Virus record (IMG/VR): IMGVR_UViG_3300028486_000080 | Location: 144,199 to 165,361 of that record | Length of the DNA stretch: 21,163 bases | Direction: 5' to 3' (one strand) | From: a virus | Lineage: Duplodnaviria > Heunggongvirae > Uroviricota > Caudoviricetes | In this document: positions 1 through 17,680 of the stretch, in pieces | Position numbering within the stretch: position 1 is the first letter of the stretch | How the letters are laid out: every line of letters starts with the position of its first letter | Notes under the pieces: generated by a model | What the model was told of the DNA's origin: nothing | What the model saw: the letters and a program-made list of their open reading frames with translations, nothing else | Databases searched by the model: none | Position numbers and translations under genes: made by a program

Positions 1-31
1 TAACGGGATCAGAAAATGACCATTTTACCAT
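1..31 (-). CDS. Probable 5' end of the next tail gene (MVKWSFSDPV...), truncated by the window edge
   Basis: ATG at 31-29 overlaps the stop of the 25..3729 gene (ctATGgTAA), like the overlap at 3722-3729. A GAGGG lies about 8 nt upstream and the frame is open to base 1. Only 10 codons are visible. Confidence 0.35.
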   Translation of the reverse strand, partial: MVKWSFSDPV

Positions 32-3000
32 AGCCGTTGCCCTCGACGCGGAACCGAATAGTCACCAGGAGACCAACGCATAACAACGCGACGTGTCACA
101 CGAACACCCTTACGATCCAAAAATGGATCGTTATTGACGTCAATGATGCCGTTTATCAGGACAACGTTGATATCCATCGTATCCTTATCAAAACCGAATT
201 CGTCCTGAAGAAGAGCGTCGTAGTTTATCGCCCATACAGCTTCGTTATTATTATCCAACGCAGCGGAGGCGTTGACAGAACCGATGATGTATGTACCCTC
301 ATACGGGTCATCCCATAGAGAGTCGAATAGTGTTTCATCGTATGGGGCGTTTAGGAAGTAAGCCTCAATACTATCGTTGCGCGCAACAGTCTCTTCATCG
401 AGCGTATCCGTAAAGCTGTAGAATGGTAGACGCGTGCCCAACAGAAGGCGTACGTCTCCAAAAGTATCCCAGCGATGGACGTTATGTGCCCCCTGCCCGA
501 GTAGTGGATAAGGGTCAAGCTGCACATCGAAGCGCTTGCTAGTATTGTTTGTTCCTGTCCCTCCCATCTTGAATGAAGGTTCTCTATTATCGGCGTGATA
601 CTCTTTGGAAATGACACGTTGTGATACCAAGGTCGGCTGATATGGAAGAACAATCTCACCAGCGGCGTGATGCATGGCATGGTCAGAACCATACCGCGCG
701 CGGAACAGCCCAGAAAACGTGACAGTCTTACCATCCATAGCGACAGATGCGTTCTGAAACTGTAGCCACTCTCTATCCACAAGGATCAGGTTTCTATGAT
801 GGTCCGCGTAAAGCTCCTCCAATGTGGCGTTACTAAAGTATCCAGCCACATCGCGGCAGAACAGCACGTCAATAGAGACGTTTTGTGTGGTGAAAGCTGC
901 GATAGTAAAAGGGGGGATGGTAAGCAGTCTGCCCCACAACACGCTACCCGGTAGCGACTCTGCGAACAGCGTCGTGCCTCCCGCAACTACACCGATGGTA
1001 TCTGTGGTATCAAACTCATGAACAACATCGGTCAGACCAGATAGAACAGTCGAGGTGAATACGTTGAAATCCGGCTGCATGACATGCACCGACAAGGGGA
1101 ACGGAGAATCACTAGGAACCTCGCGGTCGAAGTCATCAACGTTGTCTCCTTCAATTCCTGAAAGAGCCGCCTGTTCGCTGTACTTACCGACCGAATCAAC
1201 ATTCATCTGCACTTCGAGTGAAAAATCGGCACCAATGTCGATCTGCTTGATGCGCATGCCTCCGTTCACCGTCGTCAGGTCGGTGGGCGTGGCTGCCAAA
1301 TACTTGGACGGGATTCTGATGCGAGCGGAAGCTTCCGCATCCTCCAGCCCTTTGATGGCGAGGAATTCTGCTAGTTGAGCCATAGATGTGTCATCGGCGG
1401 TAAGGGTAAAAGTAAAGGTTGATAGGGTTGGTTGGTTAACAACTTCATCAGGAAGTTGGAAGGATTGTGACCACGGTTCGCCGTCGAGCGACACACTAAT
1501 ATAGTTAATAGTCACCGTCTTGGCAAGGTTTTCTTCCGAGCTTTTCTCGAACGAGAACGGCTTCTCTAGATCGTTAATATTAACGTTTATCGTTGATGCG
1601 GTCTGACTCATCAGGAACTCAATGCGATTGTCCACGTAAGAACGGAACTGGAACGCAGTTTCCAGGTCAGTAATGATGTCAGCGCCCTTGAGGTAGCTAC
1701 CTGATCGGTAACCGACAACGGGGGTGCCAGACAACCCTACAGCGTTAATCTCGTCTAGACGCAGCCCTGAGCGCTTCGCTAGGTCTGCCACGATATCCCC
1801 TAAGGCTTCCTCGTTTGCCTCCACACGGGACGCATAAGCGCGTACAACGACATCTGCCGTGGACACATATGTGATCGAATTCGCCTTGAAGTCGTAGAAC
1901 TGTGCCGTGGTGCTCTTAGGGGCATGCGTAGCGTTCTCAAGGGAGTGGATAACCCCCGTGGCAACATCCAGACTATAGATCACGGCGTCGGTTCCAACGA
2001 ACACGATAGAAGAGAACGCTCCAGCACGTACATCCACACTTCCTGGCAGATTGCCAAATGAAGTTGTCCACGTTACGCCACTAGCAGGGCTCCATCCAAT
2101 AATGCGGTCGTCCAAAAATATAATTAGGGAGCTAGGGCTGATGCAAGACACAACGCTGAGGATAGCTGTGGCACCACCTACAGGTATGATTGTCTCAGAA
2201 GGCGCCCAACGGGTCTCTAATGGGTTGGTTCCGCTGACCATATATTCATTGATTATGAGGTTTGTCCCATCCAGTTTGCTCAGGAACAAACTATTCACAA
2301 CCTCAGAAACATCCTCATCAGAACCGATGTAAGCCCCGAATGTCGCGAACTCGCCTGACTCGCTTATAGTTTGGATTTCTTCCAGCGCTGCGGTGAGTTC
2401 ATTTAGTAGATAGACCTTACAAGTGGCTCCCATAGAAACGAGGTAGCTAGCTTGATAATTGTAATCATCCAGCATATAGACTACGGCAAAGTCGTTACGA
2501 GCATCTTCGACCGTCGTCAACAACGTCCCGCTGTTGAAGTCATGTACGCCGATATCTGTGCCGTCGCTTGTGACAGCTAAAGGTAGTTCCGATAGAGCCA
2601 CGACTCCACTCAATGCAACATCGATAACTTCAGTAAGGCTGTCGTAGTCCAGCGCCTTTATATTAGCGCCATCAGTGATGAACACGCGACGAGAGGCAAC
2701 ATCGACCTTGAATAGCTGGTAGTCAGCATACTCTTCGCTCTCCAGGGCAGGTTGATCATCAGATACAGAGCGAGCAACTTCCACCTTCCACTGAGGGAAG
2801 CCATTAAGCGTGTTCAAATCGATGTTGGTGACATACATGCCCGCCATATCTCTGTACGCCGGGACACGACCGAACCCCTCCACGTGTGCAACATCAGCAA
2901 CCACCTTCTGTGCCGGGCTGCCCTTATAAAAGCTGATTGACACACCAGGAGGTATCTCGACTGTTGTAGTTGTCTTGTCGTAGATCAGAACGCTGTCAAG

Positions 3001-3729
3001 CCATATACGAGACACGCCATCGATCATCCCGGCGCATAGGGCGAGGTGTAGATCAATGTAAGTCGCGATTGTATAATAAGTCGTTCTAACGAGGGTCTTC
3101 CCTTCGTAAGACACGACAGTGTTCTTAGACTGCGTTTCTCTAGGTTCGCTAAGCCACACAACATTGCCAGGAAGGTAGGTTTTTCCATACACCAATTCGA
3201 TGGGTATACCATACTGAGAATTGGTAACAGCCAAGTCAACACCGCGCGCGTCCTTGAGAACATCACGTACAGTAATAGGGTCTCCAGCCGGTTTTGGGTT
3301 AGTTCCACCAAAACCTCCTGGGTTCAAATTAGGTCCAGGACATTTCAACTGCTTGCAGTAGCAATTCGCGGTATTCACCTCACCGTCTAATTGAAAAGCA
3401 GCGTTCCCCATGCAGATATAGTAGGCACCTTGGCATGATAGAGAACACCGTAGCTGCATAACCGGGCGATTGCTTTCTGGCGGCGGGCATCCGTTATGGC
3501 ATGCATCTAACTGATTTTGACATTGCTCAGATAGATTCTCATCAAGGTCTTTTAGGTCTTGCTCATGCTGCTCAAGGCAACGTTTTTTCGCCTCCTCGCC
3601 ACGCGGGAAAGCATCTGGCGAGTAGTCTCCACTAAGATCAAGGTTGGTAGGTCCAGGATCATTGTTGCAGTTCGGTCCTGTACCGGCGCTTGTGCATCCG
3701 TTATATGCCTCTGGTTTGCAGTTAGCCAT
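25..3729 (-). CDS. Tail tip / central fibre protein (lambda J-like, GTA-type host-specificity family), paralog 2, with Cys-rich N-terminal domain
   Basis: 1234-aa ORF. Carries family motifs YGIPIELVYG..GNVVW, ALCAGMIDGVSRIWLD..LIYD, PAYRD and NLILVDREWLQF...FSGLFRARYGS. Lies downstream of the tape measure. Start overlaps the upstream stop by 8 nt. Confidence 0.85.
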   Translation of the reverse strand: MANCKPEAYNGCTSAGTGPNCNNDPGPTNLDLSGDYSPDAFPRGEEAKKRCLEQHEQDLKDLDENLSEQCQNQLDACHNGCPPPESNRPVMQLRCSLSCQGAYYICMGNAAFQLDGEVNTANCYCKQLKCPGPNLNPGGFGGTNPKPAGDPITVRDVLKDARGVDLAVTNSQYGIPIELVYGKTYLPGNVVWLSEPRETQSKNTVVSYEGKTLVRTTYYTIATYIDLHLALCAGMIDGVSRIWLDSVLIYDKTTTTVEIPPGVSISFYKGSPAQKVVADVAHVEGFGRVPAYRDMAGMYVTNIDLNTLNGFPQWKVEVARSVSDDQPALESEEYADYQLFKVDVASRRVFITDGANIKALDYDSLTEVIDVALSGVVALSELPLAVTSDGTDIGVHDFNSGTLLTTVEDARNDFAVVYMLDDYNYQASYLVSMGATCKVYLLNELTAALEEIQTISESGEFATFGAYIGSDEDVSEVVNSLFLSKLDGTNLIINEYMVSGTNPLETRWAPSETIIPVGGATAILSVVSCISPSSLIIFLDDRIIGWSPASGVTWTTSFGNLPGSVDVRAGAFSSIVFVGTDAVIYSLDVATGVIHSLENATHAPKSTTAQFYDFKANSITYVSTADVVVRAYASRVEANEEALGDIVADLAKRSGLRLDEINAVGLSGTPVVGYRSGSYLKGADIITDLETAFQFRSYVDNRIEFLMSQTASTINVNINDLEKPFSFEKSSEENLAKTVTINYISVSLDGEPWSQSFQLPDEVVNQPTLSTFTFTLTADDTSMAQLAEFLAIKGLEDAEASARIRIPSKYLAATPTDLTTVNGGMRIKQIDIGADFSLEVQMNVDSVGKYSEQAALSGIEGDNVDDFDREVPSDSPFPLSVHVMQPDFNVFTSTVLSGLTDVVHEFDTTDTIGVVAGGTTLFAESLPGSVLWGRLLTIPPFTIAAFTTQNVSIDVLFCRDVAGYFSNATLEELYADHHRNLILVDREWLQFQNASVAMDGKTVTFSGLFRARYGSDHAMHHAAGEIVLPYQPTLVSQRVISKEYHADNREPSFKMGGTGTNNTSKRFDVQLDPYPLLGQGAHNVHRWDTFGDVRLLLGTRLPFYSFTDTLDEETVARNDSIEAYFLNAPYDETLFDSLWDDPYEGTYIIGSVNASAALDNNNEAVWAINYDALLQDEFGFDKDTMDINVVLINGIIDVNNDPFLDRKGVRVTRRVVMRWSPGDYSVPRRGQRLW

Positions 3730-6700
3730 TGTTCACTCGCAGTCCTGATCGGAATCGATCATAATTGGCGCCACCAGGGAAATACCACCCTACTACAGGT
3801 CCATCCGCTTTCTCCGGTAGGTTGATTTCTACCGCCGTAAAGGTTGCAAAGTGGAAGTCCCCATCCAAGGTAAATCCCGCATCTTCGAGTTCATTAAGCT
3901 CATAGCGCCGCCCAAATTCTCCATCCTGCCCAGTGTAATAGAGCATGTAAGCAATATAGTCGTTTGTGTTGACCACAGGCTCAAACGGAGTTGTCTCAAA
4001 TCCTCCTTCGGCAAATTTTGTCTCGAATAGTGCGGCATCGAATGGCGCCTTTAGGACGCAAATACCGACAGGTGGCTCTGGTGTTGGGAACTGTGAGTTA
4101 TTTCTGAATGTGGAGGTGAACGGCTGTGCCCCCGGAATTCGGATCAGAACACCCTCATCGTCCATCCCGTTTGGGCTCTTTTTGATCCACATACCACCAT
4201 GCTCCCACACATCATCAAGGAAGGAGTCAAAGGCAGTATTAATGGAACGGCTAAGTCCACCATTAGAGGCTACTACACTGATGTTCGTTGATTCTACGGG
4301 GATATCCCCGATCAACACACTATCGGTGTCGTATATGACGCACACTTCTCCTGGCACATGGGAGTTAGTGTGGTGAACTGTGCCAAAGCGCCCGCGGACA
4401 AGCCCTCGGAAAGATACTGTCTTTCCATCAATGTCTACCTCAGCAGACGTGTATTGCATAATCTCATCGCCAACAAATAACATGTTGACTCTTTCACCAG
4501 CACGTAGTTGATCAACTGTCTTATTCTGAACACGCCCTTCTACGTTTTTGTAGAACTCGATAACCAACACACTATCATAATCAGTGGTGTATGGGCGCGT
4601 CGTGTAGTTGGGCGCGGACACGAGTCGTCCGATAGCAAGCTCCTTCGAGGGTTCCCCGACAAGAAGAAAAGGAGCTACTGTATAAGTCTCCCCAACACCA
4701 CGGACGTAAACACTTGCCGGTTCGAACTCTGTATCGTCTGGGTTGGTGAGCCCTATATAAACTTGGTCACTTGAAAGCCCATTAGCGGTTGGTGGCAACT
4801 TGAGGAGCATAGGGAACACCCGAAGCGGGTACTTATTATCGTAAACCGTTGGGTCATTACCGGGAGTGGAAGAGATTCCATCCAAGCCAGGATCATCCGT
4901 ATAGATGTCTTGCGCGTCTATGTTACTCTCAACCTGCCCAATATAGCTCGACGACAGCGTTATTTCCGTAACCAACGCGTCTCCAAACAGATAATCTCCA
5001 GGTTCCAGAGTCAACAAGGAAGGAGCGGCTGTTAGTTCTACTGTTGACTGTCTCTGCAAGCGGCGAATAAGTTGCCGTTCCGCAGATCGACGGGCGATAA
5101 GAGGGGTAGTATTGATCGGAATTACAAACGTCTCATCCTCGATATTAGCGACGTAATCATCAAAGCCTGCTAGCACGTCGCGTCGCACGACCTGGGTGTC
5201 CTGTCCGCTATCCCCACCGAAGTAAGTGATGGCGATACCGGTAAGATCATCAGGAACTTGTCCACGGGTCTCAACCACATCGAGGGTTTCGCGAGCAACA
5301 TCGACAGCAACAATGTTGCTACCACTGATCGGAGCTATCTTGATCTCGTTGCCGTTGTTTATGGTCGTCAGGTTGAAGAACGTCTTGAGTTCAGTTAGTG
5401 CATCGACCGCCTTATCCTGATCCAACAAGAGATAACCTCCGAACACGACGTTCGATAAACTTGGCGCCTTGATGCTGGTATCCATATATTCCAAGACTTG
5501 ACGCAGATTTGCACCATTGTCTTGGCGCACATCTGGGTACAGCTTGCAGACTTCCCCATCATCTGTTGTATAGATGATGTTGCCGCGCTGACCGTCGTAG
5601 AACTGCGCTAGCGGAGTGGAAGCGTCAGGGGCATTTAGCATATCCCCTAGGGTCGTAACGACGCCTGTCTCTAGGTTCATGGTGTAAATAGCCCCGTCAG
5701 CGATGTAGTCGTAGCGCTTAAATCCTTGGAAAAAGCGTGCACCACTGACGTTTGGAGTATAGGCTGGAGTGCTAGATACCCATAGAGTCTCAATATTACC
5801 CCCCGCCAGTCGCAACTGGCGCACGACAATGTTGCCAGCTTCTTCGGTCCAAACAACGATAGAGCCGTTTGCTTTATAGACCATGGCGTCAAGGTAATTC
5901 CCAGTGAATGGGAAGACGTAATTAGTGTTTGGATTTGTGAAGTCGCCAACAATAAACTTTAGCTGACCTGTCTCCTCAGCGATGGCTACAAACTTGTTAT
6001 CCGCTTCGGTGTTCTCACCATAAGAGAAGTTATCAGCTAGTGAGGCAACAAGCGTTCCCGTGGTCACCGCGGAGAAGCTATCAGATTCCTCTAAAGTAAG
6101 TGTATCAACGATCCAGTCAACGACGGTAATATCATCGCCCCGAGCGAGGACGATCTTAGTAACACCATTTATGGTGATGGTGGACATGAATCCACCATCC
6201 GTCTCAAGAGCCATAGTGGCGGACTCTTGACGCACTCTGCCGGATACCACTTTTATGGTATCGTCATCAGGCTTCAGCAGAAAGTCTCCCTGATCGGTGA
6301 TTTGCGCACCAATGACATTATCCACCTCAGTTACGATAGTGGAAGACATATCTAGGAGATCAACCCAGTTACCATCAGAAACAACAACCTGAAGCGCTGT
6401 GGGATCGACACCAAATACACTGGGAGATACCACATCTAAATCGGTGGACTCAAAAACGCGCACACTGGTGTCAATGTCATTCATCACCTCGACGGTAACC
6501 GCAGGCAGGTTTGCGTCGCTGAACGTCAGCGGATAATTGTTGAACAGTAGGTAGCACATGTCTCGGTAAGCAGGAGTTCTACCAAAACCATCGTTCCCAG
6601 ACATAGTTGGGTTGACGCGCTGCGCATCATTACCCTTCCAAATATCCACAGTGAAGCCTAAATCGTATAGCTCCTGATTGTTGACCGCTATCGATGGGTC

Positions 6701-7375
6701 AAGCTCCCCAGAGGTGTTATTGTAGACCAAAACATCATTGAGCCAGATACGGGCAATAGCTCCGATCTCACCAACACATACCCCTACCATGAAGTCGCAT
6801 GTACCAATTTCTTCTTGTGTCACGGTCACAGTGTTTCCAGCCACAACCCGCGTTGTTTTAGTGGTTATGCGTGCGTCTCCTAGCCAGCAGATATTACCGG
6901 CAACGCTGATCGTGCCGAAGATTTTGGGCAACGGCAGTCCATAGTCGGAGTGTGGAACGGAAATTTGCGGCAGGGTCTTCTGGGTTACCGTTTCCGTCGT
7001 AACATCTGGATCATTGCTTGGCGGAGCTTCCTCTTCTGGGGGCTCCGGTAGACACGTAGTACACACATTTCCAGCAAGACCACCGCAGAAGCACCGGCTC
7101 GGCAATGACATGTCAAGATTATAAAGACAATTGGCGTAACTTGCAGGAGTTGACGCCGCCTGTTCTATTTCACCACCGCACGGGTTGTATGTTGGGAATA
7201 CGTTAAGTCCAGCGTGGATGTTCCCAAAACACACCGCAAATTCGCCTAGGTGATATAGTTTGGCATTCTCTAGACAGTCCTTCTGCCGAGGTTCCGCATC
7301 TTCATAGACTTTTTGCCGACATTTTGGTCCGATCACGAGTTCTTTCGTGCAGACCACGTTGCTGAAACCTGCCAT
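3722..7375 (-). CDS. Tail tip / central fibre protein (lambda J-like, GTA-type host-specificity family), paralog 1, with Cys-rich N-terminal domain
   Basis: 1217-aa ORF. Carries motifs YGLPLPKIFG..AGNICW, GVCVGEIGAIARIWLND.LVY, PAYRD and NMLFVGDEIMQY...FRGLVRGRFGT. RBS GGAGGGAG upstream. Starts 6 nt after the tape measure stop. Confidence 0.85.
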   Translation of the reverse strand: MAGFSNVVCTKELVIGPKCRQKVYEDAEPRQKDCLENAKLYHLGEFAVCFGNIHAGLNVFPTYNPCGGEIEQAASTPASYANCLYNLDMSLPSRCFCGGLAGNVCTTCLPEPPEEEAPPSNDPDVTTETVTQKTLPQISVPHSDYGLPLPKIFGTISVAGNICWLGDARITTKTTRVVAGNTVTVTQEEIGTCDFMVGVCVGEIGAIARIWLNDVLVYNNTSGELDPSIAVNNQELYDLGFTVDIWKGNDAQRVNPTMSGNDGFGRTPAYRDMCYLLFNNYPLTFSDANLPAVTVEVMNDIDTSVRVFESTDLDVVSPSVFGVDPTALQVVVSDGNWVDLLDMSSTIVTEVDNVIGAQITDQGDFLLKPDDDTIKVVSGRVRQESATMALETDGGFMSTITINGVTKIVLARGDDITVVDWIVDTLTLEESDSFSAVTTGTLVASLADNFSYGENTEADNKFVAIAEETGQLKFIVGDFTNPNTNYVFPFTGNYLDAMVYKANGSIVVWTEEAGNIVVRQLRLAGGNIETLWVSSTPAYTPNVSGARFFQGFKRYDYIADGAIYTMNLETGVVTTLGDMLNAPDASTPLAQFYDGQRGNIIYTTDDGEVCKLYPDVRQDNGANLRQVLEYMDTSIKAPSLSNVVFGGYLLLDQDKAVDALTELKTFFNLTTINNGNEIKIAPISGSNIVAVDVARETLDVVETRGQVPDDLTGIAITYFGGDSGQDTQVVRRDVLAGFDDYVANIEDETFVIPINTTPLIARRSAERQLIRRLQRQSTVELTAAPSLLTLEPGDYLFGDALVTEITLSSSYIGQVESNIDAQDIYTDDPGLDGISSTPGNDPTVYDNKYPLRVFPMLLKLPPTANGLSSDQVYIGLTNPDDTEFEPASVYVRGVGETYTVAPFLLVGEPSKELAIGRLVSAPNYTTRPYTTDYDSVLVIEFYKNVEGRVQNKTVDQLRAGERVNMLFVGDEIMQYTSAEVDIDGKTVSFRGLVRGRFGTVHHTNSHVPGEVCVIYDTDSVLIGDIPVESTNISVVASNGGLSRSINTAFDSFLDDVWEHGGMWIKKSPNGMDDEGVLIRIPGAQPFTSTFRNNSQFPTPEPPVGICVLKAPFDAALFETKFAEGGFETTPFEPVVNTNDYIAYMLYYTGQDGEFGRRYELNELEDAGFTLDGDFHFATFTAVEINLPEKADGPVVGWYFPGGANYDRFRSGLRVNNG

Positions 7376-7381
7376 CGGGGA

Positions 7382-10300
7382 TTATCTCCCTCCGATGCGC
7401 CGAGTCGCCTTGTTGATTTTGTTTCCAAGGTCACGCGCGATCTGGTCTTCGCTGCGCTTGAAGGAATCATAATCAGAAGCACGTATTTCGACGTTGATGA
7501 TGGTTGGTCCGCGAGATTGTATCTCTTGGACAGGTTTGCTGTCGGTGGTGTTAGGATCGGTGTTGGCGGTAGCCTCTGCCGTGCGCGTGCCGCTGTTGGT
7601 ACGCGCTTCGTTAGCCTGGGGTGGATTGACAAAATTCACATCAAGCTTCTTAGGTGTCGTGTCAGCCATCTGCGCAGGAGCTTCAGCCATGCTCTTAACG
7701 CCGTCGCTGAGGGCGCTGATTGCTGTGGTTAGCTTGCTCAGATCATTCATGAAGTCAGCCGGTATAGCCGCAGCAGTAGAAGCGTCGGGAACCTGAACTG
7801 GATCAGGCGCCTTAGGCATATTAGTATAGCTCAACTCGACTGGAATGTTCCGCCCCTTAGGTAGCGGCACCACAGCCTCGTTAGGGTGCAGGATTGTCGG
7901 AATGCCCCCACCGCTCATCTTACGAAGAAGCTTGTTCGTGTTAGAGATACCGCTGGCAAGTTTGGGAGCGTTGCTGAAGTCGCTTGCGCTCGTAGGCACA
8001 CTCTCCATAGCGTAACCGGAATAACCACCATAACGCTGAGCGTCGGAGCTTCCTCCACCACCGCCACCACCCGCGCTATCAGCGGCATTGGCTGCATCCA
8101 TCGCCTTCTTAGCGGCTTCAGCGAGCTTGTTGTACTTATCGATCAAGCGATCAACAGCGTTACCGGTGTCATCCAGTTTCGAGATATTAGCATCAAGTGC
8201 GTTGTTAAGAGAGTTGAGCCCTCCGCTTGCGCGACCTGTCGATCCGACGATTTCATCGAAGGAGCTTACGAGACTTGAAGAAGCTGTCTTCGCCTGTTCT
8301 GCCTTGCTACCCAGCGCGGTTATAACTTCTCCCAATTCGGATACCTTTGCGACAGCCTCAGGCAAGCGGTTGAAGCCGACTACGACTGCATCCACCGCCC
8401 CTTGGATTGTAGTCATCGACGTGCCGAGCGATGCAAAAGCTGCGGACACGACCGGCAACGTAGAAGCCAGCACACCAACGGCGAGGCTGATGATGTTGAT
8501 GCTATTTGAAAACGGCTGTAGACCAGTGTTTGCGGTCATTGCGTTCGTGCCTGTAGTTACCATCTGATCATTGACGGTGGGCAACGTTGAGCTAATTGGC
8601 GTCAAAGCAGTGGCGATTGCAGTCATCGACGCCGCAACCGTATTCATGCTGGCAGCAAGCGTGCTAAGCGTAGTCCCCCACGTAGTCCACGACTGTTGGT
8701 TAGACGTGACGGTACCGCTGGTCTTGGTCAACTCCCCAGATAGACCTGTAACTGCTTGCTGAAAGTTAGCGATGGGCGCTAACAAAGCTGCCATGGCAGT
8801 CTTGAACTGATCGGCTACACCAGAGACATCCCCGAGAGCGGAGCCAAGACTTTGCGTATCCTCGCCCGTCTTACTCAATCCCTCTCCAGCCGCTTTACCG
8901 GCATCGCCCGCCTTCTGGAGGGGATCAGTTACGTCGCCTGCTCCCTTAGCCAAACTACCAAAACCGTCTGCTCCTTGCGCCGCCGCAGGAGTGATGCCTA
9001 GGATGTTCTGGAGGAACGAGGCTATGCCAGAAGCTCCCTGCTTAAGGAAGTCAAGCAACTCCTTACCCTGCTCTGGGAGGCTCTTGGCTTTTTCACCGAA
9101 CTGATTCAAACCTTCGCCAGCCGGTTTGGTGGCGTCTGGCACCTTCTTAAGTTCGGTGTTGACCTGCTGCACCCCTTGTGTAGCTGTCTGAGTTGCGCTG
9201 TTTGCGCTGAATAGATATTGGACGAACCCGCTGAAAGATTTTCCAGCAGCCTCGGCAGCCGGAACCTGCCCCTCGATTGCTTTAGTAGCTTCCTCGTAGG
9301 TGGTCTTTCCGTCTTTGTTTGCATCAGTTAGCGCCTTGACAGCCTTAGTGGTGTCCAGGTGAGCCGCAGCTTCGCTCTTTAACTGCCCAACTTGCGCCTG
9401 CCCTACGGCGATGCTCTGACCCATCGTCGTGCTCTTATCTTCCATCGCCTTGATGGTGCCCTGGATGGTCTGGATTCGCTCACGCTCAGCATCATCTATC
9501 TTGCCATCAGCGAGCGCCGCCTGGATAATAGCGACAGCATTCTCTTTCATCTTAGCGATGTTTTCGTCGAGGTTAGTCTTGAACTCCTTCAACGTACTGA
9601 TATTCTTCTGGATCGCATCGCTAAGCTGCGATGGCGTAGCCGCAGCCAACGTCATTTCGTCAGCGAACTTGCCCGCTTCTTCCGCTCCCATACCAACCTG
9701 GACAGCCATGGCTCCCGCCTCCTCGCGCACTGATTGCAGTGCAGGAGACATTTCAGCCAATCCCTTAGCCGTTGGAGCCGTCGCATCACGCATCTTCTTA
9801 TTAGCTTCCGCCGCGTCGCTCATACCCTTTTCGTAAAGAGCGACGGCAGCTACTACAGCGCTGATACCGAGAATGATAGGGTTGAGCATCACTAGTCGAA
9901 GCGCAGCGGCGAATCCTTTTGTAGCCGCCTCGGCAGCGAAGAATCCCTTAACCAACTCTGTGAAATAGTTTACGACAGCTACACCGATGATCACTGTTAG
10001 TGCTGCACCCACAGCCTTGAGGGCGCCAGCAAAAGCATCAGCGCTCGTAGCCCCAGGAGCGAAGAAATTGATAAGTGATCCGATTGGGCTCAACAGCGTG
10101 CCGACAACACCTGCGATCCATGTGAAAGTCTCACCGAGCGTCTTTATGCCTGCGATAAAACCATCAATGACATTGATCATGGCGCCAACAACGGTACCCA
10201 ACGTCTTACCCATCGCGGCAAAAGCATCCACACCTTCAGTGCTGCTCATAGTAGCGGCGAGATCGTTCAATTGATTCTTGAAGGCGTCGAAGAAGCTTCG

Positions 10301-11449
10301 ACCAAACGCTTCCTGTAGGGTCCACACTGAGTTGGTGAATCGCGTCATGGCGGCTTGTGCAGACTTTACTGCGCCCTCCAAACCACCAGAGAAAGCCTTG
10401 TTCATTTCTACAGCCAATTTTGGCAGCAGGTCTGTCGCCAGCACATCACCGTTGCGCAGCATTTTATCTAGTTCGGCAGTTGTGACACCCATCGCTTTAG
10501 CAGCAAGGGCAAACGCGCCAGGAATGCGCTCACCAAACTGACGACGGAGTTCTTCAGTGGACACCTTGCCCTTAGAGAACATCTGCTCAAGAGCCAAGAA
10601 GGTGAGCTTCATATCATCGCCAGACAGCTTCAAAACACGACCAGCCGTAGCCGTCGCTTCGAAGATGTCATGCACATCCTGCAACGACGCACCAGCAAGC
10701 TTCGCTGCACCGGAAAACTTACCGTATGAATCTATGAGGGCGCCAATGTCTGTGGCGGTTCTGGCAGATACATCTGAAACAAACTTGAACTCGTCACCGA
10801 CCGCCGTCACAGAGCCAGAAGTAGCCTTGACGGTGTTGTTGAACTTGTCCATAGCTGTAACAGCATCGAACGATCCCTTGATGAAGTCCGCAAATAGTTG
10901 TGCACCCATGACAACGCCGAACGCCGCTAGGATGCTCTTCACACCACCCAATGCGCTACCAAAACCATCGACAGAGCCTTTGGCGCTGGACGCCTGTTGC
11001 CCCAGGTTATTGACGGCTTTAGCTGTCTGATTAGCGTGCTGCGCAACACCGGTCAGAGAAGCATTAAGGGAGTTGAGAGTGCCTGGAAGCTGAACCAATG
11101 CGGGAGGCACATGGATTCCATCCAGCGCGCGCTTCAGGTTCATAAAGGCGTTTGTTACCTTAGAAGGGTCAAGGCTGGAGAGCTTCTTGATCTCAGAGGT
11201 CAAACCCTTAAGTTCCGCCATACCAGAAAGAGTGGCGGCAGCCTTAGCCAAATTCTCGAATGAAGCAATAACGCTGGCGTCAATTGGCTTAATCTGTGCG
11301 GTAGCCTTGGCAATTGAGCCGAACTGTTTCGTTCCCGTAGCCGATAGGCCCGAGAGGCTAGTCCCCAGATTAGTTACCTCTTTGCCGAGACTCTTCAGCG
11401 CCTCTTTAGCGGCGTTGACATCAATCTCGACTTTTAAGGAGTCAGCCAA
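7382..11449 (-). CDS. Tail tape measure protein
   Basis: 1355 aa, Ala/Gly/Ser/Thr-rich and helical. Has the tape-measure N-terminal motif ALEQMFSKGKVSTEELRRQFGERIPGAFALAAKAMG, hydrophobic segments, GGIPTILHPNEAVVPL and a C-terminal IRASDYDSFKRSEDQIA. Follows the chaperone genes. At about 0.15 nm per residue this implies a ~200 nm tail (inference). Confidence 0.95.
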   Translation of the reverse strand: MADSLKVEIDVNAAKEALKSLGKEVTNLGTSLSGLSATGTKQFGSIAKATAQIKPIDASVIASFENLAKAAATLSGMAELKGLTSEIKKLSSLDPSKVTNAFMNLKRALDGIHVPPALVQLPGTLNSLNASLTGVAQHANQTAKAVNNLGQQASSAKGSVDGFGSALGGVKSILAAFGVVMGAQLFADFIKGSFDAVTAMDKFNNTVKATSGSVTAVGDEFKFVSDVSARTATDIGALIDSYGKFSGAAKLAGASLQDVHDIFEATATAGRVLKLSGDDMKLTFLALEQMFSKGKVSTEELRRQFGERIPGAFALAAKAMGVTTAELDKMLRNGDVLATDLLPKLAVEMNKAFSGGLEGAVKSAQAAMTRFTNSVWTLQEAFGRSFFDAFKNQLNDLAATMSSTEGVDAFAAMGKTLGTVVGAMINVIDGFIAGIKTLGETFTWIAGVVGTLLSPIGSLINFFAPGATSADAFAGALKAVGAALTVIIGVAVVNYFTELVKGFFAAEAATKGFAAALRLVMLNPIILGISAVVAAVALYEKGMSDAAEANKKMRDATAPTAKGLAEMSPALQSVREEAGAMAVQVGMGAEEAGKFADEMTLAAATPSQLSDAIQKNISTLKEFKTNLDENIAKMKENAVAIIQAALADGKIDDAERERIQTIQGTIKAMEDKSTTMGQSIAVGQAQVGQLKSEAAAHLDTTKAVKALTDANKDGKTTYEEATKAIEGQVPAAEAAGKSFSGFVQYLFSANSATQTATQGVQQVNTELKKVPDATKPAGEGLNQFGEKAKSLPEQGKELLDFLKQGASGIASFLQNILGITPAAAQGADGFGSLAKGAGDVTDPLQKAGDAGKAAGEGLSKTGEDTQSLGSALGDVSGVADQFKTAMAALLAPIANFQQAVTGLSGELTKTSGTVTSNQQSWTTWGTTLSTLAASMNTVAASMTAIATALTPISSTLPTVNDQMVTTGTNAMTANTGLQPFSNSINIISLAVGVLASTLPVVSAAFASLGTSMTTIQGAVDAVVVGFNRLPEAVAKVSELGEVITALGSKAEQAKTASSSLVSSFDEIVGSTGRASGGLNSLNNALDANISKLDDTGNAVDRLIDKYNKLAEAAKKAMDAANAADSAGGGGGGGSSDAQRYGGYSGYAMESVPTSASDFSNAPKLASGISNTNKLLRKMSGGGIPTILHPNEAVVPLPKGRNIPVELSYTNMPKAPDPVQVPDASTAAAIPADFMNDLSKLTTAISALSDGVKSMAEAPAQMADTTPKKLDVNFVNPPQANEARTNSGTRTAEATANTDPNTTDSKPVQEIQSRGPTIINVEIRASDYDSFKRSEDQIARDLGNKINKATRRIGGR

Positions 11450-12454: not shown

Positions 12455-14617
12455 TTAGACCGTAGCTGGCAGGAGCGAGCTAAAGCGGTCAATCATGAAC
12501 ATGGTACGGAGGACCGGATCGCGCTTTGCAGCCCATTCCATTTCCTCAACCACGTCTTGGTCGATACCACCAGGGGCAATCGGGTCAGACGTGATGATAA
12601 CCGCAGGGATCGTGAAGAAGTAATAGTTGCGGTCGTTGTCCGAGAAGTCGAAGCCCAGAGAGATCGTCTCGTGGTTGATGAAGTGCTCGTACATTTCCAG
12701 CGTCTCGAAGTAGCTGGTGATCGTGCCAGTCAGGTTGAATCGACCAGCAGCCACACCGGCAGGGAACTTCGAAGAAACAGCCGACTGGTTGCGCAGGGTA
12801 GCCTCGCCGTTGATTTCGAGAGACTGAACTGCGGTAGCCAGAACTTCACCGTTCTTGTAGACGTTGCCCACGTTCGTGGTGGAGTTCATCACGGACGTTG
12901 CGGTAGAGTCTAGAACAACGTATGGAGAGTTGCCCAGCAACGAAACCTGCTGTGGAGTAGTCTCCTTACCCATGAACTCGATGGAACCTTCCACGATCTC
13001 GCCCGAAGACAGAGATAGTCCGAAGGTGCCCACACGCATACCCGTCTGGACGAAGTACTGCTCAACGTCCGAGAAGCCCGTCTCAATCGTGAATGATTGC
13101 GGCGTGATGTCTTCAAGGTCGCCAGGGTTGCGAAGATGCGAACCCTTGATCGTCACAGCGATAGAGCCGCCGTTTGCGTTCGTAGCCACATCCTCAGAAA
13201 CGGTGAGTACGTCATTGGTCACAGCCGTTAGTGTGTAAACACCGTGTGCCGTAACTTGGGCGTTCGCGAAGTTAGAGACAGTCGTGTTAGCTCCGTTCTC
13301 AGTTAGCGTGCCGCCCTGGTCGCCGCGGAGGTTGCGGATATAGACGCGGTTGTGTGCACCGAAGTCCGTGACGATATAATCATCGTCAGCGTCAGACTTG
13401 GTGATTGCACCGCCAGGGTTATGAGCGTAAACCGTGACTGTCGTGGTCGAAACACGTGCCGTTACGTCGAGCGCCGAAGCATTGATCGCCGCAGCGAGGT
13501 TTGCAGCCGTAGCCGCAGCCGTGGCTCCAAGCGCGACGACAGTGTTGCCACCGCCGACACCATCAGGGGTGTCAAACTCGAAGACAATCGGAGTGCCTAC
13601 GCCATCATCGATGGTCAAGGTGTCGCCATCATCAGCGTTGCCACCAGAGAAGGCGATTGTTCCGACTTCAACAGCCGCGATAGCGCTGACCTGAATCTTA
13701 CGTGCCCACAGCGCCCCCATGATGGCTGCCTGTAGGTTACGCGTAGATTCGTCAACGTCCGCACCGATGGTGACAGGAACGCGACCACGAGTGAAGGCGC
13801 TATCGTTATCCCACTCAAGGACAATCGTCTTGTCGCCATCATAGATCGTTACGGTATCTTCATCGGCAGGCTGACCACCGAGAGAAATATAACCCTCTTC
13901 GTAGCCAAGACCAGACACATAAATCTTCTGACCGACAACAAGCTGCCCAGCCGACACAGCCGTAGAGAACGCATTGGTGCTGTTAGAATCGAATTGCTTG
14001 GCACCACCAGTACCGGCACGGATCGTTCCGTTCTTGAGAACAATAACGTCATTGGCGTCCAGAACCTTGGTCACCGCAGAACCGGCTTCAGCAACCGCAC
14101 CGCCGCCTACGACAGTGATGTTGGTGTTGCCCCCCGAGAAGGCTTGGTTGGCAATCTCGAAGTAGTTGTTGTTCTTCGGGTTGATGAAGCCCTCTGTCTT
14201 GATGCGGCGGTTGTCGAGGAAGTAGCCAGTGTAGTCGCCACCAGATACGCGAAGCGTGGTGGAATCGATCCAGCTAACGACAGCACCAGAGAACTTGTCG
14301 AAGGTCATAGGACGAGTCCAGAGACCGAGCAAGAACGCCTGCATGAAGTCATCAAGAGAGCCCGCAGAGAACTCGATGTTGATTTCACCGCCCGAGGTTG
14401 CCGCAACCTCAACGATATCGGACACCATGCGGTCAGCACGGAGTTCGTTAGAAACAGTCGTTTCCTTTTCAGCCGTCAGAGCCGAAGAGGTGATACGCAT
14501 TTCACGCGAAGTTCCGCTGTTGGGAGTCACACCCCAGCAATCATTGTCTTCCGCCAGATAGCGAAGAACTGCGCGGTTGGCGTCAGCGGCTTGCAAGCCG
14601 CACTCATTCAGGGGCAT
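12455..14617 (-). CDS. Major tail tube protein (phiCbK-like / Phage_tube_2-like) with large nested decoration inserts
   Basis: 720 aa. The N-terminal ANRAVLRYLAE...WGVTP...ELRADRMVS...GEINIEF and C-terminal QSFTIETGF...GRFNLTGTITSYF...TIPAV motifs form a tube core split by a ~390-aa insert. Lies after the tail terminator. Strong codon bias. Confidence 0.92.
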   Translation of the reverse strand: MPLNECGLQAADANRAVLRYLAEDNDCWGVTPNSGTSREMRITSSALTAEKETTVSNELRADRMVSDIVEVAATSGGEINIEFSAGSLDDFMQAFLLGLWTRPMTFDKFSGAVVSWIDSTTLRVSGGDYTGYFLDNRRIKTEGFINPKNNNYFEIANQAFSGGNTNITVVGGGAVAEAGSAVTKVLDANDVIVLKNGTIRAGTGGAKQFDSNSTNAFSTAVSAGQLVVGQKIYVSGLGYEEGYISLGGQPADEDTVTIYDGDKTIVLEWDNDSAFTRGRVPVTIGADVDESTRNLQAAIMGALWARKIQVSAIAAVEVGTIAFSGGNADDGDTLTIDDGVGTPIVFEFDTPDGVGGGNTVVALGATAAATAANLAAAINASALDVTARVSTTTVTVYAHNPGGAITKSDADDDYIVTDFGAHNRVYIRNLRGDQGGTLTENGANTTVSNFANAQVTAHGVYTLTAVTNDVLTVSEDVATNANGGSIAVTIKGSHLRNPGDLEDITPQSFTIETGFSDVEQYFVQTGMRVGTFGLSLSSGEIVEGSIEFMGKETTPQQVSLLGNSPYVVLDSTATSVMNSTTNVGNVYKNGEVLATAVQSLEINGEATLRNQSAVSSKFPAGVAAGRFNLTGTITSYFETLEMYEHFINHETISLGFDFSDNDRNYYFFTIPAVIITSDPIAPGGIDQDVVEEMEWAAKRDPVLRTMFMIDRFSSLLPATV

Positions 14618-16566: not shown

Positions 16567-17367
16567 TTATCTCCCCTGACCAGTATCGCGCACCTTCAGC
16601 CATATGCCTCCGATGATAGCCAAGATCACCACTCCGAACGCGACCAACGCAGCCGGGTTCTTCAAGAGCGGTTCAATCATCTGAGTCGCTGTAGCGATGG
16701 TGCCGCCAAGTCCCAACATGTACATCTTGAATGTCTCGGAGTAGCGGAACACTTCTTTAGCCGCGTCCCCCCACGGCTTGCGGTAAGCCTGAGCCGCTTC
16801 CACCGTACCTTCATTCTGCTCAGGGTCAGGGTATACGGTTGTGGACTGCTTATTGATCACTCTCTGAGGCACCGGAATGTCGTCTGGACGCAGGAACAGT
16901 TGCGCTTCATCGGCTCGACGGAGGGTCAATCCACGCAGTGTTACCATCTGACCAGTGGAGCGATCACGGGCACGATTCCACACAGCAAACTGTGCAGCAG
17001 CGCCTTCATAGTTGCCACGGTTAAGGAGTTTAAGTAAGGTTGACTTAGCTAGATTACCCTCCCCAGCGTTGTAGGTGAAGGAAATAAGAGCATCGAATTG
17101 GTGCTGAGTGAGCGGCACATTCACAAGCGCCTTCACCTTCTCCTCGAAGTATTCCATGTCGCGGCGCAGAAACTCGGTGCCCTGCTCCTTATCGATGATG
17201 CGCCCTTCCCAAACAACTTCGCCGTTTGGACCCATATTGGTGGTTCCCCACCCAATGGTCCAAACGCCTACAGGGTCTTTATACGCCTGTGGATACCAGC
17301 CCTCGTATTTCTTGATCAGAGCTAGACCAGCGTCGGAGATATGAAGATTAGTGTTTTGCGCGTTCAT
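16567..17367 (-). CDS. Endolysin, GH24 (phage lysozyme) with C-terminal hydrophobic/transmembrane tail, 266 aa
   Basis: Catalytic E-X8-D-X5-T triad (EGWYPQAYKDPVGVWT), QHQFDALISFTYNAG and GLTLRRADE. C-terminal NPAALVAFGVVILAIIGGIWL-KVR. Start reassigned to ATG 17367 with GGAGG RBS. Confidence 0.92.
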   Translation of the reverse strand: MNAQNTNLHISDAGLALIKKYEGWYPQAYKDPVGVWTIGWGTTNMGPNGEVVWEGRIIDKEQGTEFLRRDMEYFEEKVKALVNVPLTQHQFDALISFTYNAGEGNLAKSTLLKLLNRGNYEGAAAQFAVWNRARDRSTGQMVTLRGLTLRRADEAQLFLRPDDIPVPQRVINKQSTTVYPDPEQNEGTVEAAQAYRKPWGDAAKEVFRYSETFKMYMLGLGGTIATATQMIEPLLKNPAALVAFGVVILAIIGGIWLKVRDTGQGR

Positions 17368-17680
17368 CGTCGTCTTCCTCCAACAGGTCATCCAGATCGT
17401 GACCTATTTTGTTGAGGATCACGCGCCGGATTTTTGCAATGTGGGTCTCAAGGTTTAGGATGGTCAGCGTCTTCTCGTGAATCTCCGTCTCAAGAGAGCG
17501 AACGCGATCCTTCAATTCAGACAATTCATCCTTGAGGCTTTCATTCATTTTGAAGAGATCAGCGCGGAACTGTGCCATGTCGTCAGAGCGCCCGCGTCTC
17601 CAAGAAACCATGGAGGTGATCAGCGCTGTTATGAATGTCAGCAGTGCACCGATGATCGCTACCGTTACGTTATCGAGCAT
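17348..17680 (-). CDS. Holin-like / lysis-associated membrane protein (N-terminal TM helix plus coiled coil)
   Basis: 110 aa. VTVAIIGALLTFITALITSMVSW is followed by RRGR and a heptad coiled coil. Overlaps the endolysin start by 20 nt. The holin function is inferred from position only. Confidence 0.55.
   Translation of the reverse strand: MLDNVTVAIIGALLTFITALITSMVSWRRGRSDDMAQFRADLFKMNESLKDELSELKDRVRSLETEIHEKTLTILNLETHIAKIRRVILNKIGHDLDDLLEEDDDERAKH

Follow-up and report, generated by a model that had tools for sequence, protein, structure and literature searches.

Three paralogous tail-tip proteins of a phage carry a conserved cysteine-rich leader predicted to form a disulfide-stapled hairpin

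The window considered here is a stretch of 21,163 nucleotides at the end of a complete phage genome of 165,361 bp with terminal repeats. The genome is found in sludge metagenomes, from which it may derive, and no RNA data set is listed as containing it. It covers part of a tail gene cluster in which the order is tape measure, tips A, B and C, distal tail (DUF2460), hub and fibre-type genes (all window coordinates below are on the minus strand). The tape measure gene (7382-11449) has a TTG start behind a strong Shine-Dalgarno sequence and encodes 1355 residues, 0 of them Cys, with hydrophobic segments near residues 475 (2.15) and 520 (2.34). The stop of tip A (3722-7375, 1217 aa) overlaps the start of tip B (25-3729, 1234 aa), which was tip paralog 2 in an earlier, sequence-only reading of this DNA. 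Tip C (genome positions 140489-144229, 1246 aa) is the third paralog, and the window holds its first 10 codons (1-31). The tail tube protein (phrog_290, 12455-14617) has 720 residues against a profile of 411 positions, implying, on sequence grounds, putative large inserted decoration domains. At 718 residues the hub (L001:7653-9809, minus strand) is longer than that of RcGTA (296); a long insertion, with a weak HpiC1-like match (E 2.8e-5), separates its conserved pairs of Fe-S Cys.

From residue 166 onward tip B matches, in sequence and in fold, the megatron (g15, Rcc01698) of RcGTA and that of roseophage R4C (vB_DshS-R4C; PDB 6TBA/6TEH and 8GTC), the adhesin-like, central and C-terminal parts being homologous. 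The adhesin-like domain (residues 166-325; 2755-3234) is homologous to RcGTA residues 47-229 (phmmer E 2.2e-7 to 6TBA chain 8A; Foldseek E 3.9e-8) and also matches 8GTC chain M. The C-terminal domain PF23666 is found in tip B at E 7.7e-5, which is below the cut-off, and the central domain PF13550 in tip A above it; both families are found in distant triads. The sequence-only reading placed tip B among J-family proteins; homolog of the GTA g15/megatron is a more precise description than lambda-J protein. As for g15, genes for a DUF2460 distal tail protein and a four-Cys hub accompany the tip genes. The order differs, however: canonical relatives have distal tail, hub, a peptidase-type gene and then the megatron, whereas here the tip genes precede distal tail and hub. 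The NlpC/P60 peptidase (PF00877, RcGTA g14) has no match in the complete genome, while nine control genomes and a canonical phage are positive. The genome does encode a lysozyme with a hydrophobic C-terminus (window 16567-17391) and, after the fibre genes, an Amidase_2 plus SH3 protein (L001:5443-6162, minus strand); either cell-wall hydrolase is a possible substitute for the tail peptidase that is missing.

The N-terminus of tip B is rich in Cys. Its first 130 residues (3340-3729), hereafter the leader, hold 13 of the 17 Cys of the protein (hypergeometric p = 1.8e-10), at positions 4, 12, 21, 51, 70, 77, 81, 95, 99, 106, 123, 125 and 130; beyond them there are Cys at 232, 437, 529 and 958 only. 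The excess had been noticed from the sequence, and the two spacing patterns reported with it are present exactly as described: a mirror, C70-x6-C77-x3-C81, PPP, C95-x3-C99-x6-C106, and a cluster, C123-x-C125-x4-C130 (3340-3363). When 13 Cys are placed at random, the mirror by itself appears in about 2% of cases, and across the family described below an exact mirror of depth 2 occurs in 18 of 111 leaders, against 1.7 (maximum 5) in gap shuffles. A real start downstream of the Cys block had been envisaged as well, and the start proves to lie upstream of it. The ATG at 3729 follows an in-frame stop with no other start in between and gives an 8-nt overlap with the tip A stop, and two independent orthologs from other assemblies have the same six N-terminal residues. 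Together with the lack of conservation of M91 and M107, these observations support the annotated start; the downstream candidates M91, M107, V118 and L128 were rejected as not conserved in orthologs. Purifying selection acts on the leader (pN 0.29-0.38, pS 0.80-0.86). It begins with an arm (residues 1-25; 3655-3729) that carries C12 and a GxGPxC21 motif and contributes to the conserved base described below, and is followed by a Pro/Gly linker (residues 131-165; 3235-3339) of low model confidence.

The Cys block, reported for paralog 2, is not special to it. Tips A, B and C are tandem paralogs, each with a Cys leader: tip A has 10 of its 17 Cys in the first 110 residues, all 10 within residues 1-108 (7052-7375), the final codon being that of C108, and the leader of tip C has 11. 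Each of the 10 fully visible loci has exactly three paralogs between its tape measure gene and its distal tail gene (this genome, L002, L004, L005, L010, L012, L021, L022, L024 and L025). A profile search found Cys leaders, defined by at least 6 Cys before the adhesin-like domain, in 111 clusters at 50% identity; no cultured phage has a matching leader, either by tblastn or among the 111 clusters. In an unrooted FastTree phylogeny with 43 canonical megatrons, the proteins with Cys leaders lie together on one side of a branch, opposite the canonical ones (1 change, support 94), which is consistent with one origin of the leader followed by triplication.

Absence of Cys conservation in homologs, also envisaged in the sequence-only reading, was not what the alignment of 89 sequences revealed: G18, C51, C123, C125 and C130 are invariant, and C12, P19 and C21 nearly so. 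The conserved core thus consists of a base of six Cys (12, 21, 51, 123, 125 and 130), far more conserved than the variable Cys pairs, or rungs, beyond it. The PPP turn and the inner mirror Cys (77, 81, 95 and 99) are found only in the closest relatives, and both the turn and the exact inner mirror were accordingly rejected as conserved features of the family. Leader length ranges from about 80 to 350 residues; the apex of the hairpin described below is hypervariable, with inserts of up to about 200 residues, and some tip C types have long N-terminal extensions added.

Both of the megatrons with solved structures have their N-terminus inside the tail channel. Residues 1-46 of the RcGTA megatron form an iris/penetration domain that blocks the channel and is a proposed outer-membrane pore (PMC7296036), and residues 1-45 of the R4C megatron likewise form an iris that blocks the channel (PMC10276861). 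The sequence position of this domain is taken here by the Cys leader. In the megatrons known so far, a single gene gives a homotrimer, and the leader is a hydrophobic Gly/Ala stretch of 45 residues, whereas the present phage has three paralogs with an acidic Cys hairpin. The claim that a Gly/Ala-rich hydrophobic leader would be expected at this place agrees with the canonical homologs in the compared set, which begin with one. The median of the maximal 19-residue hydropathy is 0.63 for Cys leaders against 1.57 for canonical ones; none of 111 Cys leaders exceeds 1.6, as against 14 of 36 canonical leaders, and 8 of 111 exceed 1.2, as against 35 of 36. Since the Cys leaders are acidic (104 of 111 are net negative) and lack a hydrophobic stretch, they are unlikely to have kept a penetration role. 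Judged from sequence comparison, the leader is a new N-terminal domain that replaces the iris/penetration helix of a GTA-type megatron.

Two AlphaFold2 models of the tip B leader agree on two helices, residues 44-79 (3493-3600; C51, C70 and C77) and 89-117 (3379-3465; C95, C99 and C106), with pLDDT 88-98, and on short strands at 13-14 and 128-129. According to the models the leader is a long antiparallel helical hairpin, the N- and C-terminal ends of which meet in the six-Cys base, closed by the C123-x-C125-x4-C130 motif, and Cys as well as slots from which Cys have been replaced lie on one helical face. Covariation across the family connects the same slots. With slots anchored on C51 and C123, at offsets 8, 15 and 19 on helix 1 against their counterparts on helix 2, and defined after the data were seen, partner slots agree in 101/103, 102/103 and 75/83 cases (phi 0.94, 0.98 and 0.81), against phi of -0.29 to 0.23 for non-partner slots. 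After correction on a tree built from the full body without the leader (a short adhesin tree had too little support), two rungs retain independent pairs at 6.8:0 (p 0.016) and 6:0 (p 0.031), and the third gives p 0.22. The Cys lost at the offset-8 slot are replaced mostly by L, I, A or V. Tip B has lost two of the family rungs (L59/V118 and L66/A110) and keeps the third as C70-C106; its rungs 77-99 and 81-95 are additions seen in its small subclade. The proposal that the mirror spacing signals Cys pairs running from helix to helix is therefore upheld by the hairpin models and the pairwise covariation.

The mode of change also bears on the chemistry. In an Fe-S domain of the lambda gpL/hub type, four invariant Cys would be lost or kept as one set; in the leaders Cys change in twos. 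Independent losses and gains in twos are the behaviour of disulfide staples, unlike that of four-Cys metal sites, so that gain and loss in cross-helix pairs favour a disulfide ladder over multi-Cys metal sites; two-Cys metal sites would give the same covariation. The leader Cys thus very likely form a nested ladder of disulfides, which in tip B would run 81-95, 77-99, 70-106, 51-123, 21-125 and 12-130 and leave C4 over. Rungs 51-123 and 21-125 are invariant, so their pairing is read from the mirror order only. It is distinctly unlikely that only the hairpin rungs are disulfides and that the base Cys (12, 21, 51, 123, 125 and 130, with C108 of tip A and C4 of tip B) bind Zn or an Fe-S cluster, like the hub. 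Such a metal-bound base would suit the typical ligand character of CxC and CxxC clusters, the folding of tail proteins in the reducing cytoplasm, the failure to find a thioredoxin-family gene in the genome, and the much stronger conservation of the base. It does not suit the joint absence of the C12 and C130 equivalents in P0055, P0112 and P0114, where the other four base Cys stay, nor the paired loss of A108 and B4, nor the spacing after CxC, which varies between paralogs from 2 to 8 residues. The four Fe-S Cys of the hub (153, 162, 682 and 689), moreover, are still in place there, and the cluster has thus not moved.

Beyond the six-Cys base, tip A has an extra Cys at the end of its leader (C108), tip B has one at the start (C4; 3718-3720), and tip C has none. 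Eight triads have both C108 and C4, and two (L024 and L025) have neither; the absence of C4 from L024 and L025 was predicted from A-position proteins without the extra Cys before look-up, and was confirmed in both. These are only two loss events, on separate branches within a single subclade. This joint presence and absence suggests an inter-subunit bond, and tip B C4 is probably disulfide-bonded to tip A C108. Tip A C66 (window 7178-7180) and tip C C83 (L001) have no obvious intra-chain partner and co-occur here and in L002; a second inter-chain bond, between A and C, is a weak candidate for the pair. The parity of total Cys per triad was set aside as evidence, being even in only 7 of 10.

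Modelling of the N-terminal parts of A, B and C together gave a complex with a score of 0.77, against 0.41 for the best control; among solved complexes 58 of 80 attain the score mark applied, and among mismatched pairs 2 of 110, counts that are only a rough guide for a three-chain job. The runs share at least 40% of contacts, with partner pLDDT of at least 64. The confident contacts are all in the leaders (A 23-75 and 108; B 4-128; C 1-6): residues 101-112 of tip B, in helix 2, pack on helix 1 of tip A, and residues 1-6 are the only share of tip C in the confident interface with tip B. A108 and B4 are both in the modelled interface, while the A108-B4 pair itself is absent from the contact list. 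The solved megatrons being homotrimers, the model could have passed by likeness to them, yet its confident contacts are confined to leaders, for which no solved relative was found. Three paralogs in every fully visible locus and the modelled mixed complex both point to a heterotrimer, unlike the homotrimer made from a single gene. One copy each of A, B and C is thus likely to make up the trimeric baseplate, with the three hairpins in one partner-selecting bundle.

Partner selection might be all that the leader does, in which case it would register A, B and C at assembly and then be cleaved or idle. The confinement of the modelled A-B interface to the leaders is in keeping with this, as are the paralog-specific conserved residues that line the leader helices and the low-complexity linker that follows. 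Given the redox state of the cytoplasm, however, disulfides form only after lysis, and selection on the Cys pairs thus argues that the mature virion retains the leader. The linkers show no conserved motif for cleavage, and a role in chain selection only is very improbable.

Pfam and PHROG scans gave no family for the leader, and Pfam searches with 76 leaders and with ten long leaders revealed no shared family. A sequence profile of the leader had no match in the PDB at E 1. Searches with the leader model gave at best Z 7.7, to unrelated hairpins, a best viral E of 0.78 and Atlas TM below 0.5; helical hairpins are common, and these searches therefore show neither a relative nor a new fold. An ESM Atlas feature search was blank. 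No stand-alone leader was found among proteins of 53-286 residues by a search that is insensitive, and the 8 longer matches were all of tip size. A match to a well-known tip domain, which would have made the module a familiar one, was thus not found, nor was a published description of the triad or the leader, within an incomplete coverage of the literature. Of the undescribed, disulfide- or metal-stabilised module put forward in the sequence-only reading, the module stands as unclassified and conserved; covariation favours the disulfide over the metal. No specific support was found for its suggested role as a redox or periplasm sensor, and that as a plug is plausible, as we discuss below. Sequences and models together indicate that the tail tip of GTA type exists here in a variant form, with a conserved, unclassified and putative disulfide-ladder domain whose function we infer.

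In the mechanism that we propose, the leaders would assemble reduced in the cytoplasm, and their Cys would oxidise after lysis to give six intra-chain bonds in B and the A-B bond. Tips A, B and C would form one heterotrimeric baseplate, the three hairpins being packed as one bundle that corks the tail axis at the iris position. Opening of the baseplate would pull the bundle aside as a rigid body on the Pro/Gly linkers, and membrane penetration would pass to the tape measure protein. Disulfides are known from the virions of Milano, T1 and other tails, with spontaneous oxidation as one proposed route (PMC10811340, PMC11945409, PMC13576161). A channel made by the tape measure protein has been proposed for T5 (10.1101/2022.09.20.507954), and by analogy this protein could supply the membrane channel here too.

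The bundle comprises about 365 residues, which is near the size of the three iris domains plus the 150-residue peptidase of the RcGTA lumen (about 290). An axial cork is therefore the best reading, and we put at about one in two the probability that the bundle occupies the iris position on the axis of the tail and fills the space that iris helices and NlpC/P60 have in RcGTA. Two points count against it: the linker of about 35 residues permits either side of the baseplate floor, and leaders that vary so much in length, with large apex inserts, are hard to fit into a cavity of fixed size. The main rival has the same ladder and heterotrimer with the bundle pointing outward below the baseplate as an asymmetric spike, the apex loops of which would bind a pilus, S-layer or capsule. 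A spike would agree with the hypervariable apex and its inserts, with disulfide stapling, which suits an exposed part, with a linker that is long enough and with the N-terminal extensions of tip C types. The channel position of the N-terminus in both solved megatrons speaks against it, the genome has separate fibre-type genes, and ten long leaders showed neither a sugar-binding nor an enzyme domain; a spike is possible, though rather unlikely.

An axial cork is compatible with a redox latch, in which the tail opens only once a labile bond of the ladder, such as A108-B4, has undergone reduction or shuffling at the host surface. The periplasm is oxidising, the rungs are freely gained and lost, which fits stabilising staples, and the A-B pair is dispensable in two lineages, all of which makes such a latch improbable. 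What commends it is that the Cys of the virion are concentrated in the three leaders, the capsid and tape measure proteins having none, and that the baseplate disulfides of Milano must break before contraction (PMC10811340). The full combination, an asymmetric heterotrimeric baseplate in which a cross-linked six-helix cork replaces iris and lumen peptidase and opens by breaking or shuffling of the inter-subunit disulfide at the host surface, is unlikely to be right in all its parts.

Comparison with known systems sets the cork in context. In T5 the pb3 hub has a homologous fold in the adhesin-like region, and an axial helical trimer, formed by the tape measure C-terminus, lies where the GTA iris helix does (10.1101/2022.09.20.507954). 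Unlike the present tip, pb3 is a homotrimer and its plug an internal insertion; disulfides are not mentioned in the T5 paper. Intra- and inter-chain tail disulfides occur in the Agrobacterium phage Milano and in the T1 and gp39 tail tubes (PMC10811340, PMC11945409, PMC13576161), spread over ordinary tube, sheath and wedge proteins, whereas here a dedicated Cys-rich domain holds most of the structural Cys. More than one megatron gene per genome is also found in phiCbK-like Caulobacter phages (CcrBL9 gp170/gp171) and Erythrobacter phage XM05. These have two copies, with canonical hydrophobic leaders free of Cys and a peptidase-type gene between hub and megatron, and their megatrons fall outside the Cys-leader branch.

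In GTAs and related phages, the gate and the outer-membrane pore are both proposed to be the N-terminal helix of the megatron. An entire lineage in which this helix has been exchanged for an acidic, stapled hairpin would mean that the helix is dispensable, and hence that tail closure and membrane crossing must differ. The published siphophage hubs compared are homotrimers. A new tip architecture would, if true, be given by a fixed heterotrimer of A, B and C, with subunits of 1200-1500 aa and a predicted inter-subunit disulfide. A tail tip of three related proteins with stapled hairpins, as many uncultured phages appear to have, points to an undescribed, covalently locked closure of the DNA exit. 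The predictions, six intra-chain bonds and A108-B4, are concrete, and are approachable on small recombinant domains without phage culture.

The cultured Caulobacter (L008:8324-15528) and Erythrobacter (L009:4539-12477) phages have two megatron paralogs with ordinary hydrophobic leaders. The leader of tip C in L025 (L025:16546-17520) has 25 Cys, including those of an extra Cys-dense N-terminal extension of about 95 residues. In the close relative L002, tip C (L002:13726-14330) has an inserted hairpin block of about 80 residues, absent from tip C of this genome, with eight Cys that form an exact mirror of depth 4 (spacing 10-6-10-3 / 3-10-6-10).
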